DNA of 64,000 nt from Deinococcota bacterium (lineage in GTDB: Bacteria > Deinococcota > Deinococci > Deinococcales > Thermaceae). Made by a program: the position numbers and the translations under genes. The DNA lies in contig JBGFRI010000005.1 of the NCBI GenBank assembly GCA_041695225.1, forward strand, positions 37,272 to 101,271, written 5' to 3'. The notes under the pieces were generated by a model. It ran no database searches. It saw only the letters and a program-made list of their open reading frames with translations, and was not told the DNA's origin. Shown one piece after another: positions 15,351 through 50,017 of the stretch (the first letter of the stretch is position 1; each line of letters opens with the position of its first letter).

Positions 15351-16055
15351 ATGGACTACGACATAATTGTGGTGGGTGCGGGGTTTGCTGGCTCCGAGGG
15401 GGCCTACGCGCTGGCCAATAGGGGGCTGCGGGTGGGGCTGGTCACCACCAGTCTGGACTCGGTCTTCCTCCCTTTCACACCCATTCGTGCCCCCTTTCCT
15501 GCGGGCTCTTTGCTGGCCGAGGTGGGGGAAGACAACCTCGGCGGCTGGGAACTGCACTGTCGAGCCAAGTATAAGCTGGAAAACCACCCTCGGATTCACC
15601 TCTTACAGCTCTCGGTTACCCAGTTGTTGCTGAAAGGGCCGGCGGTGGTGGGCATCAAGAGTTGGGAAGGGCCACAAAAGACTGCCCCTAAGGTGGTACT
15701 GGCGCTGGGTAGTTTCATGGGGCCCAGGCTTTATATCGGCAGCATGACCGAGCAGGCCGGGCGGCTTTCGGAGGTAGCCTATCCCGACCTGTACCAGCAT
15801 CTAGAGCAGCTCGGCTTTGCCTTCAATGTAGCCCAGGCCGAGGTTACTGAGCAGGGTGGAACCCCTGGTTATCGTGTGGAGTACAAGGTTTTTGCTAAGA
15901 GTGAGTGGGATCAGCCTTCCTTCCGGCTGCACCGCTTGGCCGGTCTGTACGGACTGGGCCTGTGTGTACTGGGCCAGGGAACCTATTCTGGCATGGCCGA
16001 AGAAGGGTTGCGCCTGGCAGTAGCCCTGAGCCAACCACCGCATTCCCGTGGCTAG
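15351..16055 (+). CDS. Short GidA/MnmG-related FAD-binding protein
   Basis: VVGAGFAGSEGA dinucleotide-binding motif; 234 aa; GRLSE and GLYGLGLCV segments of GidA-like proteins. Confidence 0.8.
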   Translation: MDYDIIVVGAGFAGSEGAYALANRGLRVGLVTTSLDSVFLPFTPIRAPFPAGSLLAEVGEDNLGGWELHCRAKYKLENHPRIHLLQLSVTQLLLKGPAVVGIKSWEGPQKTAPKVVLALGSFMGPRLYIGSMTEQAGRLSEVAYPDLYQHLEQLGFAFNVAQAEVTEQGGTPGYRVEYKVFAKSEWDQPSFRLHRLAGLYGLGLCVLGQGTYSGMAEEGLRLAVALSQPPHSRG

Positions 16056-16235
16056 CCAACCCTATTTCAATGGGAACTGGCGCTGTTCGAGCAGTTTGTG
16101 CGACTTGCCATCCAGCCGCAGTAACGGACAGTCCTCGTAGTTTTCGCCGGCCAAAAGCCCCTTGGTAGATCAGATTGTCGGTTTGTGGTGGGTAAAGTCG
16201 CGACTCAGCGCCCAGACGGGCTCGGCGGGATTCAG

Positions 16236-16321
16236 TCCAAACCAGGCCACCAGCCGCTATAGCCCACCCTCGTGCGCCAGAGCACCAGCAAAGGCAAGTC
16301 GGCTGTATTTGGTTGTTATGT
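16236..16321 (-). mobile_element. Degenerate attC site after hicA
   Basis: ACATAAC-aacca-AATACAGC-CGAC...GCG-GCTG...GTTTGGA just downstream of the hicA stop; right arm imperfect. Confidence 0.5.
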
Positions 16322-16331
16322 GACGGGTGTT

Positions 16332-16553
16332 CTAGATGGCAGCGACGAATTCATTGACCGTGAGATTAGCCGAGCGGATCAGGCTACGGAGTGTGCCCTT
16401 GGCAACCTCTTTGTCGTCGGGGACACAGAGCGTCACTAGCTCGCCCTCTTTAGTCATGATAATGTGGCTGCCGCGTTGGCGGGCGACCGCCCATCCGAAG
16501 GACTCGAAGACCCGGACCACCTCGCGCCCGCTTAAGGCTGGCAGCGAGGCCAT
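16332..16553 (-). CDS. hicA: HicA-family toxin
   Basis: LSGREVVRVFESFGW...RQRGSHIIM...VPDDKEVAKGTLRSLIR; TAATG overlap with hicB. Confidence 0.9.
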   Translation of the reverse strand: MASLPALSGREVVRVFESFGWAVARQRGSHIIMTKEGELVTLCVPDDKEVAKGTLRSLIRSANLTVNEFVAAI

Positions 16554-16759
16554 TACGCTGCAACCTCTACCTGGCGTGTCTCGATAGTCAGTGGCATCCC
16601 TTTCTCGGCACGCACTTCTAGACATAGCGCAATGGCTTCTTTAATGTTTTCCAGCGCTTCGTCCTTCGTCGCCCCTTGGCTTACGCAGCCGGGGATCGCC
16701 GGGCACTCGACTACCCAGACCCCATCTTCGTCCCGATCAAGCGTTACGCTGAATTTCAT
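16553..16759 (-). CDS. hicB: HicB-family antitoxin (short form)
   Basis: DEDGVWVVECPAIPGCVSQGATKDEALENIKEAI; GGAGG RBS. Confidence 0.9.
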   Translation of the reverse strand: MKFSVTLDRDEDGVWVVECPAIPGCVSQGATKDEALENIKEAIALCLEVRAEKGMPLTIETRQVEVAA

Positions 16760-16809
16760 ATCCACCTCCGTCACATAATCATGTCAAAACACCATAAATG
16801 CAGCAAGAC

Positions 16810-16871
16810 TTCTAACGGCACGCGCTTCAGCCGCCGGGCGAAGCGAGGTCGGCTGCAAGCACATGTTAGCC
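16810..16871 (-). mobile_element. attC site of the nitrilase-family cassette
   Basis: R'' GGCTAAC (contains the stop codon), 5-nt spacer, L'' CTT(G)CAGC / L' GCTGAAG with one extra base, R' GTTAGAA. Confidence 0.88.
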
Positions 16872-17597
16872 GCCGTTTCCATCAAACTTCCACATCAGAA
16901 CGTTATCTGTGCCGTGCGGTGACTCCGCCAACAGTTCGCCGTCGGCATTGACAACCATTGCGCCACCAAAAGATGGGGCGTCGGTGTTTATCTCAAGCGC
17001 ATTTACAATCAGCGTGGTTACACTTACTGCTTTGACGGCTTCAATGTACAGTTGTCGCTCTTCGGAAGTCCATCGGTCAATATCGGGCGAGCATTTATCG
17101 AAACTGCGCGCCATCGGCACAACTAGCATGTTCAACGAAGGATCCAATCTTTGTACTATCTCTTTGTTGAACAAGTCGCCGCAAATTAGTAGCCCCAGCC
17201 GCCCCAAGTCGGTATCAACGCTGTCTACAGTATCGCCATTTACAAAGGGCGGTTTTTCTTCAACCTTCCGATGTCTGAGGATGACCTTGCCTGTTCTATC
17301 CAGTAATACCGCCGTATTGTACACGCCCGACTCTGCACGTTCTAACACTCCGAAGCAAAAGTATGTTGCATACGTTCTCGCAAATTGCTCGATTTGTTCG
17401 GTGCTAGGCCCAGGTATGGACTCCGCAAACTGCCTAAAATCATTTTCGTCGTATAAGTAGCCCGTCAAAGTACATTCGGGCAAGCAAACCAGATCGGGCT
17501 GATGGTGTGCTATCTCTGCAAGACGCTGCGCTAGGCGGTCCAAGTTTGCAGACGGGTTACGGGGTTCGGTTTTGAGCGGAATAAGGCAAACAAGCAT
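16866..17597 (-). CDS. Carbon-nitrogen hydrolase (nitrilase superfamily), gene cassette
   Basis: Triad motifs LPEC, HRK, LICGD; visibly lower GC than flanks; bounded by GTTAGCC and its complement GGCTAAC. Confidence 0.9.
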   Translation of the reverse strand: MLVCLIPLKTEPRNPSANLDRLAQRLAEIAHHQPDLVCLPECTLTGYLYDENDFRQFAESIPGPSTEQIEQFARTYATYFCFGVLERAESGVYNTAVLLDRTGKVILRHRKVEEKPPFVNGDTVDSVDTDLGRLGLLICGDLFNKEIVQRLDPSLNMLVVPMARSFDKCSPDIDRWTSEERQLYIEAVKAVSVTTLIVNALEINTDAPSFGGAMVVNADGELLAESPHGTDNVLMWKFDGNGG

Positions 17598-17631
17598 ACT
17601 TGCAGACCCTTGATTACGTATGAACGTAGGC

Positions 17632-17762
17632 GGCTAACTAGCAGTTATACCGCACCTGCGGCATAACACACCAGAAATGTTATCAGTTTCCATCGGAAAA
17701 AGCACCCACACCGCTTTTCCCTGTAATCCATAGCGATTGGTAATACCTGGGGCGAACACCGC
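17632..17762 (-). repeat. ~128-bp direct repeat, copy 1; long attC-like unit ending in GTTAGCC
   Basis: About 10 differences from 18412-18540; ends GGTATAA-CTGCTA-GTT. Confidence 0.85.
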
Positions 17763-17842
17763 CTAAGTTAAGCCGCGCCCGGCCACAGATGCACGGAAGA
17801 ACACCCCCGATCCCGGGCGTCGGCTTGAGCGCAATGTTATGC
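17751..17842 (-). mobile_element. attC site of the RelE/ParE TA cassette
   Basis: GCATAAC-attgc-GCT(C)AAGC-CG(A)CGCCCGG...CCGGGCGCG-GCTTAAC-TTAGGC-GGTGTTCGCC; both canonical extra bases present. Confidence 0.85.
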
Positions 17843-17847
17843 CACAC

Positions 17848-18141
17848 CTATCGGCGATCAAGGCCAAACCTTGGATGACGACGGTGATGGCGGATGACCA
17901 ATATGCGGATCGCTTCTTCGCTAATGAGGCGAAATAAGACAGAGTATGGGAAACGGTGCACGAAACAGCGGCGAATACCATGCTCGACCATGGCGTACTG
18001 GGAGGGATTTGCGCGAATGCGCGCAATGGCGGCATAGACCTCGGAGCGAAACTCGTCACCGAGGCCAGCGCGCTGTTGGTTGTAGTACACGACGGCATTA
18101 TTGAGATCGGATACGGTGAGAGGGTGATACTCAACCTTCAT
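17848..18141 (-). CDS. RelE/ParE-family toxin
   Basis: YYNQQRAGLGDEF...IRRCFVHRFPYSVLF...ILVIRHHRRHP. Confidence 0.9.
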   Translation of the reverse strand: MKVEYHPLTVSDLNNAVVYYNQQRAGLGDEFRSEVYAAIARIRANPSQYAMVEHGIRRCFVHRFPYSVLFRLISEEAIRILVIRHHRRHPRFGLDRR

Positions 18142-18377
18142 TCCGAGACGCCACCGGTGCGCCGTAAGAACTCGGCGTGACCAATGGGTTGGACTGCGCC
18201 AGACTCAATCTCGGCATCTCGTTGCGCCGCAACCTCGATGCCCTCTAGGTCGATGTTACGATTACCAGCCACACTGGGATCATCAACTAAACTCTCCCAT
18301 GCCACCATCGCGAGCTGCTCCCGCTCAGCAGCGGGGAGGGCCAATATCTGTTTCTCAAGTTCAATAATCGTGCTCAT
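18138..18377 (-). CDS. Addiction-module antitoxin
   Basis: ILALPAAEREQLAMVAWESL...RDAEIESG; ATGA overlap with the toxin. Confidence 0.88.
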   Translation of the reverse strand: MSTIIELEKQILALPAAEREQLAMVAWESLVDDPSVAGNRNIDLEGIEVAAQRDAEIESGAVQPIGHAEFLRRTGGVSE

Positions 18378-18408
18378 AATATCAAGTATAACGCGTCAGG
18401 GCGGCGGG

Positions 18409-18540
18409 GCATAACTAGCAGTTATACTGCACCTGCGGGATAAGACACCAGAAATGTTATCAGTTTCCATCGGAAAAGGAACCCACACCGCTTTTCCCTG
18501 TAATCAATAGCAATTTGGAAATACCTGGGGCCAACACCGC
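18409..18540 (-). repeat. ~128-bp direct repeat, copy 2; long attC-like unit ending in GTTATGC
   Basis: Homologous to 17635-17762; precedes the TA cassette. Confidence 0.85.
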
Positions 18541-18663
18541 TTGAGGCAAGTAGCAACCCTCACGCCTGGGATAGTAGGCTGTACAAAAGCTTCCTTGTAG
18601 GAGCAAAACTTTACCCCCGGCGCCGCTACCGTGCGGGCCGCGACCAGGAAATCGTACGGCCAC

Positions 18664-19233
18664 TCAGGGCCCGGCCCTTTGTCGCAGTAGATCGGCAATA
18701 GCGGCATGTCCGGCCTCGAGCGCCACCTGCAAGGGCGTCTTACCCTGAAAGTTCTGCCAGTTCACGTCGGGGCCGGCTACTTCCAGCAGCCAGCGCACTA
18801 CCTCGGTATGGCCGCGCCCGGCGGCCAGGCTAAGGGCCATGCTGCTGCCTTCCGTGGCCCCATACTCCCACACCAGTTCCACCATCTCCACCTGACCAGA
18901 CAGGGCTGCATGGGGCAGCAGGGGAATGCCATGAGCACTCTTGTGTCCTGCCAGTGCGGGGTTTTCCCCAAGCATCCGGCGCACAATGGCGATCTCCCCC
19001 AGCATGGCAGCCGTGGGAATTTCCAGGGGTGCGCCCTGGGTCAACAGGTACTCAGCGATGGCCCGGCTGCCCACATGGGCCGCACCCTGAATGGCGGTTT
19101 CGGTGTCGCCAGGGCGCCACTCATGCGCCAGGTTCAGCAGCCCGGGTGTTTCGGCCAGCATAGTCCGTACTTTTTCCAGGTCACCATGCCCAGCAATCAC
19201 AAACTCACGGATGCGCTCAGAGGAGAGGCTCAT
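18664..19233 (-). CDS. Ankyrin repeat protein
   Basis: GDTETAIQGAAHVG, LAAGRGHTEVVRWLL, GKTPLQVALEAGH. Confidence 0.88.
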   Translation of the reverse strand: MSLSSERIREFVIAGHGDLEKVRTMLAETPGLLNLAHEWRPGDTETAIQGAAHVGSRAIAEYLLTQGAPLEIPTAAMLGEIAIVRRMLGENPALAGHKSAHGIPLLPHAALSGQVEMVELVWEYGATEGSSMALSLAAGRGHTEVVRWLLEVAGPDVNWQNFQGKTPLQVALEAGHAAIADLLRQRAGP

Positions 19234-47758: not shown

Positions 47759-47999
47759 GTCATTGCAAGGAGGCCCTTATTTTGTCATTGCGAGGAGGCC
47801 CTTGGGCCGACGAAGCAATGGACTGGGTGATGGAGTGGCCGAGGATGGGGATGATTAATCTATCCAGGAGAGGCTCGTAAGCCCATCAGCCGTCGAGGTG
47901 ATCTGGATTGCTTCGCATCCTTCGGATGCTCGCAATGACGAAAATATACGTTCCCGTCGTCATTGCGAGGAGGCCGCAGGCCGACGAAGCAATCCAGGA
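47759..47999. repeat. Cluster of GTCATTGCGAG...GAAGCAATC palindromic (REP-like) repeats
   Basis: Copies at 47784-47819 (+), 47905-47939 (-) and 47959-47999 (+), partial at 47759; includes the 45-bp repeat at 47818-47860. Confidence 0.85.
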
Positions 48000-48232
48000 G
48001 GGCATGCATGCAACTTGACTAGCGGGATGCTCGGGATCTCTCCTAACGGCCTGCAGGGCATCAGACTTTTGCCTCGAAACGCTCCTTACAAGCGCCGAGC
48101 CTCTTACAGCGTGCTCTTAGACCAAGCGTTGCCGAGGATTCACGGTAACCCAGTGTTTCAAGTCGAGGCAACCGGCCTGGTGGGTAGTGTGCGCTAAGTC
48201 TTTTGGGCTGGATCGGTCTGGGGCAAAAACAG

Positions 48233-49093
48233 TTAGCGAGACCGGGGGTCTAAGCGCTGGCGCATCCACTCACCAAGCAAATTGATGCTGAAGGCGGCCA
48301 GAGCAATGGCCAGCCCGGGGAAGATCACCATCCAGGGGTGGGTGCCCAGGTGAGGCCGCCCCAGAGCCAGCATATTTCCCCAGCTCGGCACGTCGGGAGG
48401 TACGCTCAGCCCCAGAAAGCCCAGCCCGGCCTCGTAAAAGATCATGGCCGAGACCTCGAAGGTAGCCAGGGTGGCCAGCGGGCCCAGCAGGTTGGGCAGC
48501 AGGTGGCGTAGCATTATGCGGCCATCGCTGCAACCCAGGCTGTACGCGGCCTCGACGTAAGGCAGGGCCTTGAGCCGCAAAACCTCCCCCCGCACCAGGC
48601 GGAAAAAGATTGGCGAACAGGTCACCCCGAACAACAGAATCACGTTTTCCAGGCTGCGCCCCAGCACCGAGGCCAGTACCACCACCAGCACCAGGTAGGG
48701 TACGGAGAGCAGCAGGTTGGTAACGCCGCTCAAAATGGCATCGAGCCGGCCCCCGTAGTAACCTGCCAGCAGGCCCAGCCCGACCCCCAGCACCAGGGCT
48801 ACCAACACCCCCAGAAAGCCTACCGTGAGCGATACCCGGGTTCCGTAAATTATGCGTGAGAGCAGATCCTGCCCGAGCTGGTCGGTTCCCAGCAGGTGGG
48901 CTGGGCTACCACCGGGATGCCAGGCGGGGGGCAGGTTGGCATTAATGAAATCGCCCGCATACGGGGAGTGAGGAGCAACCAGCGGTGCAAACACTGCCAC
49001 CAGCACCATCAGCAGCAGAAGTCCAGCCCCCAGAATGCCGCCAAAGTGTCTGCGCGCACGCGGAACAATGCGATGAGATTGAATATTCGCCAT
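48233..49093 (-). CDS. Peptide/nickel-type ABC permease (DppC-like)
   Basis: HLLGTDQLGQDLLSRIIYG, YVEAAYSLG, RHLLPN, FLGLSVPP. Confidence 0.92.
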   Translation of the reverse strand: MANIQSHRIVPRARRHFGGILGAGLLLLMVLVAVFAPLVAPHSPYAGDFINANLPPAWHPGGSPAHLLGTDQLGQDLLSRIIYGTRVSLTVGFLGVLVALVLGVGLGLLAGYYGGRLDAILSGVTNLLLSVPYLVLVVVLASVLGRSLENVILLFGVTCSPIFFRLVRGEVLRLKALPYVEAAYSLGCSDGRIMLRHLLPNLLGPLATLATFEVSAMIFYEAGLGFLGLSVPPDVPSWGNMLALGRPHLGTHPWMVIFPGLAIALAAFSINLLGEWMRQRLDPRSR

Positions 49094-49099
49094 ACTCGT

Positions 49100-50017
49100 T
49101 TATCCCAGCTTCACCCTGGGGTCTAGCCAGGCATAGAGCAGATCGCCAAGTAGCTGCACGGTAATGGCAAAGAAGGCCAGAAAAAGGGTTATGGCCTGCA
49201 CCAGGGGAAAGTCGGCGTCCTGGATAGCGGTGTTGAGCAGACTGCCCAGGCCCGGCCAGGCGAAAATGGTCTCGATGTAGATAGAGCCGCCCAGCAGATA
49301 GGTAAACTGAATTCCCAGCACGCTAACTAGCGGAATGGTCACGTTTGGCAGCACGTGCTTGGTGGCGACCCAGAACTCATTCAGGCCCTTGCCCTTGGCA
49401 GTGCGAACAAAGTCCGAGCCGCGAACCTCGAGCACACTCGCACGCACCAGCCTTACCAGCTGCGAGAAGCCGGCCAGCCCCAGCGCCAGCGCGGGCAGAA
49501 TTAGGGACGCGGGGTTGTCCCGGCCAAAGGAGGGCAGCCAGCCCAGCTCTACTGCAAACAGCAGGATTAGCAGCATTGCCAGCAGAAAACTTGGCACAAC
49601 CTGGCCCGAGAAAGCCAGCCACTGTACCAGCCGGTCAGCCAGGGTTGCCGGCCTGAACCCCGCGATAAGTCCCAACGGGACCGCCATGACCAGCACCAGT
49701 AACAGAGCTGCCAGGGCCAGCTCGAGGGTGACCGGTAAGCGCTGCCAGATTAGCTCGAGGTTGGGCTGCCGGGTACTAAGCGACAAGCCCAGATCACCCC
49801 GGACAAGGCTGGCCAGGTAGTTGTAAAACTGCTCCCACAAGTGCCCGTCCAGGCCCATCTCGGCCCGGAAAGCAGCGCGCTGTTCGGGGCCAGCTTCCTT
49901 GGGGAGCATCAGCGCTACCGGGTCGCCGGTGAGCCGCACCATGAAGAAGACCAGAAATAAAGCGCCCAGCATCAGCATTAGCGACTGTGCCAGGCGAAAG
50001 ACGAGGTAGTGAATCAT
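49100..50017 (-). CDS. Peptide/nickel-type ABC permease (DppB-like)
   Basis: GDLGLSL, DFVRTAKGKGL, ETIFAWPGLG, DFPLVQ. Confidence 0.92.
   Translation of the reverse strand: MIHYLVFRLAQSLMLMLGALFLVFFMVRLTGDPVALMLPKEAGPEQRAAFRAEMGLDGHLWEQFYNYLASLVRGDLGLSLSTRQPNLELIWQRLPVTLELALAALLLVLVMAVPLGLIAGFRPATLADRLVQWLAFSGQVVPSFLLAMLLILLFAVELGWLPSFGRDNPASLILPALALGLAGFSQLVRLVRASVLEVRGSDFVRTAKGKGLNEFWVATKHVLPNVTIPLVSVLGIQFTYLLGGSIYIETIFAWPGLGSLLNTAIQDADFPLVQAITLFLAFFAITVQLLGDLLYAWLDPRVKLG

Follow-up and report, generated by a model that had tools for sequence, protein, structure and literature searches.

The window analysed here, a stretch of 64,000 nt, lies on a 107-kb contig (C22) of a Thermaceae assembly that comprises 50 contigs and is 92% complete. 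On its minus strand, at 16298-18550, it holds a short array of integron-type gene cassettes. The array is a cluster of attC sites lacking an integron integrase (CALIN) that has kept relics of attI, i.e. a decayed integron platform and not a bare attC cluster, and it is very probably what is left of a chromosomal integron native to this Meiothermus/Calidithermus-like genus. Two matches to an attC covariance model (R1) are found 0.9 kb apart on one strand together with a half site, and contig C22 carries no integron-integrase gene (intI). A complete integron, with intI adjacent to the array, is not present; the best match to the integron-integrase profile TIGR02249 reaches 51 bits against a cut-off of 265.

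Five small minus-strand genes sit between an ankyrin gene (19233..18664) and a GIDA-like gene (15351..16055, plus strand) according to Pfam. They are distributed over a toxin-antitoxin (TA) cassette, a CN-hydrolase cassette and a HicBA cassette with a GC content of 0.564, 0.512 and 0.556, respectively, compared with a window mean of 0.604. In the direction of the cassettes, the features assigned by Pfam, gene calls, R1 or homology are:

18576..18653, minus strand: N-terminal remnant (about amino acids 18-43) of a CoA-binding-protein gene, upstream edge of the replaced segment
18415..18550, minus strand: attI/intI-stub module 1 (by homology), 136 nt, GC 0.47; attI core CTTATCCC (18444-18437) GCAGGTGC AGTATAAC (18428-18421) TGCTA G (18415)
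17757..18414, minus strand: TA cassette, 658 nt, start TTATGC; antitoxin, ParE toxin and attC body (Pfam, R1)
18377..18138, minus strand: antitoxin gene (Unstab_antitox, Pfam), overlapping the ParE toxin gene
18141..17848, minus strand: toxin gene (ParE_toxin, Pfam)
17842..17751, minus strand: TA attC; R'' GCATAAC (17842-17836), L'' GCT(C)AAGCCG(A)CG, L' CGCGGCTTAAC, 9-nt spacer, R' GTTCGCC (17757-17751)
17638..17756, minus strand: attI/intI-stub module 2 (by homology), 119 nt, GC 0.48, start TTCGCC; attI core GTTATGCC (17667-17660) GCAGGTGC GGTATAAC (17651-17644) TGCTA G (17638)
16816..17637, minus strand: CN-hydrolase cassette, 822 nt, start TTAGCC; open reading frame (ORF) and attC body (Pfam, R1)
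17597..16866, minus strand: CN_hydrolase ORF (Pfam, 3e-29)
16871..16810, minus strand: hydrolase attC; R'' GGCTAAC, L'' CTT(G)CAGCCG(A)CC, L' GGCGGCTGAAG, R' GTTAGAA (16816-16810)
16298..16815, minus strand: HicBA cassette, start TTAGAA, attC cut short (Pfam, gene calls)
16759..16553, minus strand: HicB gene (HicB_lk_antitox, Pfam)
16553..16332, minus strand: HicA gene (HicA_toxin, Pfam)
16321..16298, minus strand: HicBA attC, 5' half only; R'' ACATAAC (16321-16315), spacer aacca, L'' AATACAGCCGAC, i.e. AAT(A)CAGCCGAC (16309-16298)
16077..16268, minus strand: C-terminal mutY pseudogene remnant (amino acids 269-333, with internal stop codons), downstream edge of the replaced segment

The R1 model was seeded with 13 attC sites from class 1 plasmid integrons, trimmed of their variable centres. 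The aadA1 attC was found in 2,515 plasmids and six class 1 arrays were retrieved, giving the sites of estX, a HAD-family hydrolase cassette, aadA2, cmlA1, aadA1, qacL, blaVIM, aac(6')-31, blaIMP-1, aac(6')-IIa, aadB, dfrA16 and blaCARB-2. All 13 fold as the canonical hairpin of R and L boxes with bulges in fixed positions. With filters off, the top match in the window is the hydrolase attC (16871..16810, 42.5 bits, E=1.5e-8, full length), followed by the ParE attC with 17.7 bits for the L boxes only and 27.9 bits at full length in glocal mode (17842..17754). The remaining matches are at or below 13 bits, which is noise. A scan of 68 genomes of the family gave matches in 16 of the 26 genomes of the same genus as against one site in 32 genomes of a small-genome, Thermus-like genus. 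The attC likeness in the window exceeds chance because of this E-value and the single match in the Thermus-like genomes.

Comparative structure agrees with the model. In an alignment of 24 sites from this genome, family relatives and two hot-spring metagenome contigs, fitted to R1, 91% of the pair cells are standard-paired, compared with 25-41% when the partners are slid, and compensatory changes are seen in 7 of the 11 L-stem pairs. The extrahelical L-box bases, CTT(G)CAGCCG(A)CC in the hydrolase site and GCT(C)AAGCCG(A)CG in the TA site, fall in the same two columns as in the attC of aadA1 and blaVIM. The bottom strand of the TA attC folds better than its shuffles (z=-3.2) with the L-box bulge visible in the fold. 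On these grounds the sites at 16871..16810 and 17842..17751 are identified as attC, and recombination as a folded bottom strand is their putative mode of action. A search with Rfam, which has no attC family, returned only tRNAs for the region and six related loci.

The crossover in the TA attC lies between G17757 and T17756, so that the last six bases of R' (17756..17751) fall in the next module, the 119-nt module 2, which separates this site from the hydrolase cassette. R' was placed by comparison with a metagenome locus (L173) and is the GTTCGCC after a 9-nt spacer, not where a 6-nt spacer would put it. In the hydrolase attC the crossover lies between G16816 and T16815, and the HicBA cassette takes in the final six bases of R' (16815..16810). 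The third site is different. R1 gives no match at E<=10 in the proposed interval 16236-16330, the minimum-energy DNA fold has z=-0.3, and the proposed 3' half (CGGCTGGT...GTTTGGA) falls within the mutY pseudogene at 16268..16077. The proposed site is therefore a true 5' half fused to mutY-derived sequence.

The initial annotation had described three lower-GC modules on one strand, each followed by an attC-like site, with canonical extra bases in the L boxes. The modules and the L-box bases were borne out, as were the sites after the hydrolase and TA genes, but the third site is reduced to its 5' half. It had also proposed that two cassettes pass a self-complementarity test, and the coordinates given for them are exact: G18415/TTATGC with GCATAAC at 17842, and G17638/TTAGCC with GGCTAAC at 16871 (the slash marks the crossover point). 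The first six bases of the cassette are thus complementary to its own R'' in two of the three cassettes of the window, and in six of the eight first cassettes genome-wide.

Copies of two cassettes in other surroundings show where the mobile units end. The nearest homologues of the hydrolase, P0002 (82% amino acid identity) and P0006 (79%), are encoded on metagenome contigs L161 and L164, each with an attC match after the gene. The DNA of the hydrolase cassette is 85.3% identical in L161, where it is also 822 nt long, and 82.4% identical in L164. The likeness begins at G/TTAGCCGCCT… and stops at the G of R', and the 80-nt flanks are 53-59% identical, which is the shuffle level. The TA cassette has a counterpart in L173 with 91.3% DNA identity over 656/658 nt and 92% protein identity for ParE. 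Here the likeness spans CTAG/TTATGCCCCGCCGCC… to …TTGAGGCG/TTCGGCC, with unrelated flanks (57-61%). Movement of these genes without G/TT boundaries had been named as an outcome that would speak against an integron, and both sets of copies are bounded exactly by G/TT. Compared in this way, the hydrolase and TA cassettes are mobile units with G/TT limits. No copy of HicBA with DNA-level similarity was found elsewhere; the nearest HicA (89%) is in locus L174, inside a typical cassette array that has no DNA-level flanks in common with the window and whose long attC sites were missed by R1.

ParE proteins with 87-89% identity (P0122-P0128, loci L170-L172) are found in metagenome-assembled genomes (MAGs) labelled Pyrinomonadaceae (Acidobacteriota) and Chromatiales (Gammaproteobacteria), and one with 84% identity in a record labelled 'uncultured Thiodictyon'. 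Loci L170 and L172 begin at G/TTATGCC as well, but their attC has been lost or replaced.

A direct repeat of about 135 nt (92% identity) stands before the TA and hydrolase cassettes and corresponds to modules 1 and 2. Its final 40 nt or so, GTTATnCC GCAGGTGC GGTATAAC TnCTA G/TT, recur on contigs C14 and C15 (twice each), C3 and C7, where this attI core forms the 3' end of a conserved element of about 240 nt. Altogether the genome has eight copies of the core at five loci, three as tandem pairs. Each of these remnants heads a mini-array, with attC matches directly following the first ORF downstream. The motif is also found in ten related genomes. In the relatives G015 (IntI intact, 463 bits), G010 and G024 this element occupies the interval from the start codon of intI to the first cassette. 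It has the same position in Calidithermus roseus NBRC 110900, where IntI shares 94% identity with the G015 protein and an attC of 39.9 bits comes after the first cassette. An attI at the head of the array is present by homology to these intI-attI junctions. The long copies on C14, C15, C3 and C7 encode, in reverse, N-terminal stubs of IntI (tblastn E 2e-9 to 7e-3). Compared with the copies of about 240 nt on C14, C15 and C7, the two in the window have the same internal deletion, which joins the stub (…GGAAACTGATAAC) to the attI core. Judged by this homology, the 135-nt repeat is a decayed attI with a 5' stub of intI. The crossover of module 1 lies after G18415, an attC-3'-like remnant (CTTGCC TCAAGCGGT G/TTGGCC) precedes this module, and its attI copy has lost part of the palindrome pairing.

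The terminal palindrome had made the end of an IS200/IS605 insertion sequence (IS) or of a miniature inverted-repeat transposable element (MITE) a candidate for the repeat; this was dropped once intact integrons proved to have the same sequence at their intI-attI junction. An ORF of about 31 codons with a strong GGAAGGGGGA ribosome-binding site crosses attI in the cassette direction and ends …VIPQ[LV]RYN[CY]* at the TAG of CTAG/TT. This putative ORF is present in the long copies (e.g. C14:111342-111250) and in intact integrons (L048, L075), is open in G015, G010 and C. roseus, and is reminiscent of ORF-11 of attI1. Its reading as a leader peptide, suggested by the strong Shine-Dalgarno sequence, was rejected. 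Because the ORF is antisense to the N-terminal codons of intI, its coding conservation is not independent evidence. The stubs also contain extended -10-like motifs, TGATAACAT in module 2 and TGATAAAAT; a Pc-like promoter at TGATAACAT is possible but unsupported.

Two tandem pairs of stub modules in the same orientation are found outside the window, on C14 (111249-111560 and 115343-115690, 4.1 kb apart) and on C15 (60240-60500 and 62553-62830, 2.3 kb apart). Phd-like, MNT/HEPN and PIN/ParE-like genes are among the cassettes that they enclose, and housekeeping genes (lpdA, ftsZ) adjoin the pairs. The copies of the module are more alike within a locus than between loci. In the attI core at C15:62553-62588 the 8-nt central spacer is reverse-complemented (GCACCTGC instead of GCAGGTGC) and is followed by CTAG/AGACC, not CTAG/TT.

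No tyrosine recombinase was detected on the 107-kb contig. In the whole assembly the TIGR02249 profile gave at most 51 bits, with no match on C22. Searches by tblastn with both types of IntI known from the genus returned only stubs, ordinary Xer-like recombinases and a recombinase of 252 amino acids, none of them on the contig of the window. IntI proteins above the curated cut-off, of two types, are present in 6 of the 26 genomes of the same genus and in 8 of the 68 of the family. The second lineage of attI and intI in the genus (type B; G002, G021, G020 and G007) has left pseudogene relics in the present genome on C38 and C25, each beside an attC. The prediction of an attC cluster without intI, acquired horizontally and with no tyrosine recombinase nearby, is thereby upheld by an independent covariance model, by covariation, by cassettes elsewhere with G/TT limits and by the lack of IntI.

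The relic on C38 (59569-59876, locus L023) consists of the N-terminal 97 or so amino acids of a type-B IntI fused to the last 50 or so by an internal deletion. A cassette and its attC (C38:60370-60435) read away from it, with the junction CTAG/TT inside the former N-terminus of intI. On C25 a type-B N-terminal stub (48855-49127, locus L024) is followed after 200 nt by a tRNA gene (49300-49372), and an attC is found at 47955-48014. The 252-amino-acid protein, a tyrosine recombinase that is not IntI, is encoded in a 1.29-kb repeat with 95% identity at C12:115823-117110 and C8:126600-127900. On C12 a sequence resembling the intI stub (…TACCAGGTTCCATCGGAAAAACACCC…) lies just upstream of this repeat, and an antitoxin-like ORF diverges from it.

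The array stands in place of host genes. The order GIDA-like (plus), mutY (minus), CoA-binding protein (minus) and ankyrin (minus) is found on contig C10 of the same assembly, where mutY and the CoA-binding gene are intact, and in at least nine congeners, and five of these loci, when scanned with R1, gave no match. The comparison of empty and filled loci suggested by the initial annotation could thus be made, and two of its other proposals, a genome-wide attC-model run and a search for intI elsewhere, gave the significant matches and the stubs described above. The locus in the window is a second, diverged copy of the one on C10 (GIDA-like 78% and ankyrin 73% amino acid identity, DNA 78-79%), in which the array replaces amino acids 1-268 of MutY and the CoA-binding protein beyond about amino acid 43. 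The mutY remnant matches the MutY of C10 by tblastn (E=2e-7) and by blastn (68.5% over 162 nt). The CoA-binding remnant has a weak match to its intact paralogue there (tblastn E=0.018), and its place agrees with the conserved gene order.

The copy at 15351-19233 of the window corresponds to C10:120130-122871 (locus L062) and is about equally distant from all congeners, which suggests an origin outside the lineage or an old duplication. The synteny around apgM was tried for the empty-site comparison and given up because it is not conserved in relatives; the GIDA-like/ankyrin locus was used in its place. An IS630 transposase remnant at 16060-16236, proposed from an LNPxEPVW motif, was ruled out since tblastn identifies the segment as the C-terminus of mutY. 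No terminators in the region were reported by the promoter and terminator scan. Short-read Logan contigs from other runs (L157, L159 and L160) have the same arrangement of hydrolase, HicBA and GIDA-like genes. They break off some 100 nt upstream of the hydrolase gene, where the repeated attI module lies, probably because the repeat interrupted the assembly.

A course of events can be inferred from these remains. A type-A IntI, which is a tyrosine recombinase, would have put circular cassettes into attI through a crossover at the G/TT point of the R box, so that each cassette starts with TTRRRY and carries its own folded attC at the end. In circular form the hydrolase cassette would show the junction …GCGTGCCG/TTAGCCGCC… (…GCGTGCCG/TTAGCC…). 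The integrase gene would later have been lost and a short, degenerate 5' stub with the attI core left behind. Recombination at a GTT secondary site inside intI may have destroyed the gene, as suggested by the attC-type L'-spacer-G that abuts both stubs (G/TTCGCC and G/TTGGCC). Local duplication of the stub-attI module would have placed it before both the TA and the hydrolase cassette, and insertion or rearrangement of the array may have truncated the last attC, mutY and the CoA-binding gene. The two TA cassettes would favour retention of the array, and the cassettes may be expressed from a putative promoter in the stub, in analogy with Pc of class 1 integrons. Because no intact IntI was found in the assembly, the array is most likely frozen at present.

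Several observations weigh against this interpretation. As the assembly is only 92% complete, intI might be missing from it, and the absence of the gene from the genome is likely but not proven. The two stubs in the window are too degenerate for a tblastn match to IntI, and they are assigned by some 45 nt of attI core (92-95% identity) together with about 33 nt of stub similarity. The proposed promoter was not reported by a scan for promoter consensus sequences, and since the -10-like motif lies in former intI coding sequence its conservation may reflect coding constraint. R1 is not the attC model of IntegronFinder, and its sensitivity falls off for long attC sites. Shuffled sequences fold as well as the hydrolase attC at minimum energy (z=-0.5), the 9-nt spacer between L' and R' of the TA attC is unusual, and the HicBA cassette fails the self-complementarity test.

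The incompleteness of the assembly also bears on whether the array is active, as a satellite served in trans by an intact IntI that is encoded in the unassembled 8%, on a plasmid or on transient incoming DNA. Integrases act on attC clusters in trans, and intact IntI of two types exist in 6 of the 26 congeneric genomes. Intact L and R boxes survive in both attI cores and in all but one of the three attC sites, and cassettes with 85-91% identity circulate in metagenomes. However, the IntI-like sequences in the assembly, at nine sites, are all stubs or internally deleted pseudogenes, the last attC is truncated, the palindrome of attI copy 1 is impaired, and several independent contigs from other samples have the identical, fixed arrangement. 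Activity of this kind is therefore unlikely. A similarly small chance is given to the stub-attI module being itself a cassette-like mobile landing pad with G/TT on both sides, excised and reinserted by IntI, which would spread an insertion platform and a promoter. Both modules in the window start after an attC-type L'-spacer-G (…GCTTAAC TTAGGCGGT G/TTCGCC and …CTTGCC TCAAGCGGT G/TTGGCC) and end CTAG/TT. The number of copies, their tandem pairs and their position at the head of mini-arrays would fit as well, and truncated N-terminal pieces of intI of comparable size, covering model positions 1-81 to 1-89, recur in five other genomes. On the other hand, the 5' ends of the modules on C14 and C15 are not G/TT junctions beside attC, no circular form was observed, and the closer likeness of copies within a locus fits local duplication better than transposition. 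If the modules were mobile, one resident or transient integrase could serve many dispersed mini-integrons, each with a promoter and attI, and this would account for the eight attI copies at five loci without intI and for the recurrent intI stubs of 80-90 codons in sister species.

An islet of TA and accessory genes flanked by a MITE or IS repeat, with the attC likeness arising by chance, is very unlikely and effectively refuted. The 135-nt direct repeat with its terminal palindrome does flank the TA module, there is no recombinase nearby and Rfam finds nothing in the region, but the E-values of the attC model with the control of one match in 32 Thermus-like genomes, the cassette limits at G/TT in unrelated contexts and the homology that links the repeat with the junction of intI and attI in intact integrons all stand against it. 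The relic of a native chromosomal integron is the explanation retained.

The type of integron is itself ordinary, and its host family is one for which no published description of integrons was found. The literature search turned up no account of integrons native to Thermaceae or Deinococcota, the sole 'integron' claim found for Thermus concerns a prophage with attL and attR, and the texts of two large IntegronFinder surveys (one of them PMC4889954) do not mention the phylum Deinococcota. The initial statement that integrons are rarely reported in this phylum holds for the literature searched but not for the genomes, given the counts of IntI and attC in the genus and family above. The locus and its relatives document an integron system of working type native to Meiothermus/Calidithermus-like Thermaceae, with two lineages of intI and attI, heterogeneous attC, and TA and enzyme cassettes. 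They include one genome in advanced loss of the integrase, in which eight attI relics each still head a small array. The array is also a small, clean example of the origin of a CALIN and of cassette traffic across phyla, the latter because its cassettes are 85-91% identical in unrelated metagenome contigs and ParE proteins of 87-88% identity are annotated in MAGs of Acidobacteriota and Gammaproteobacteria. A thermophile-derived set of IntI, attI and attC could be of use in experiments.

CALINs have been defined as clusters of two or more attC sites that share a strand, lie less than 4 kb from each other and have no intI nearby, and intI pseudogenes were found near only 15 of 279 of them (Cury et al. 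2016, PMC4889954). The array in the window resembles them in the spacing and strand of its attC sites, in its small promoterless cassettes and in having no intI nearby. It differs in that attI cores and 5' stubs of intI are recognisable and duplicated in tandem, and in that one attC is truncated by a host-gene remnant. Such recognisable tandem relics are unusual, as is a genome with eight attI/intI relics that each head a mini-array. Insertion of cassettes by the integrase outside att sites has been described in a preprint (bioRxiv 10.1101/2022.09.11.507474). It would be a possible, here hypothetical, route for cassettes or attC x GTT events into intI, mutY or the CoA-binding gene.

The closest intact systems, in C. 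roseus NBRC 110900 (NZ_QWLA01000027.1) and G015, have the same type-A attI (…GTGTTATACC GCAGGTGC GGyATAAyTACTAG/TT…), the same geometry to the intI start and the same class of attC. They encode an intact IntI of 330-340 amino acids with the IntI-specific insert (ALARKYPNAATSWAWQYVFPA), whereas the window has only a degenerate stub of about 90 nt. The class 1 attC sites (aadA1, blaVIM, cmlA1) share with those of the window the order R'' RYYYAAC, 5-nt spacer, L'' GTT(N)CAGCCG(A)C, …, L', spacer and R' GTTRRRY with the same bulges, and the hydrolase attC resembles that of blaVIM box for box. Class 1 integrons differ in host phylum and cargo, and their L'-R' spacers measure 5-6 nt, compared with 8-9 nt in the window.

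Sedentary chromosomal integrons such as the Vibrio cholerae superintegron have TA cassettes of the ParE and HicA families among their cargo, which are thought to stabilise the arrays. The array in the window likewise mixes ParE and HicA TA cassettes with a cargo cassette. In contrast to the V. cholerae type, with one long array and uniform, species-specific repeats, this genome has numerous very small arrays, each of 1-4 cassettes, which are scattered and whose attC sites are heterogeneous.

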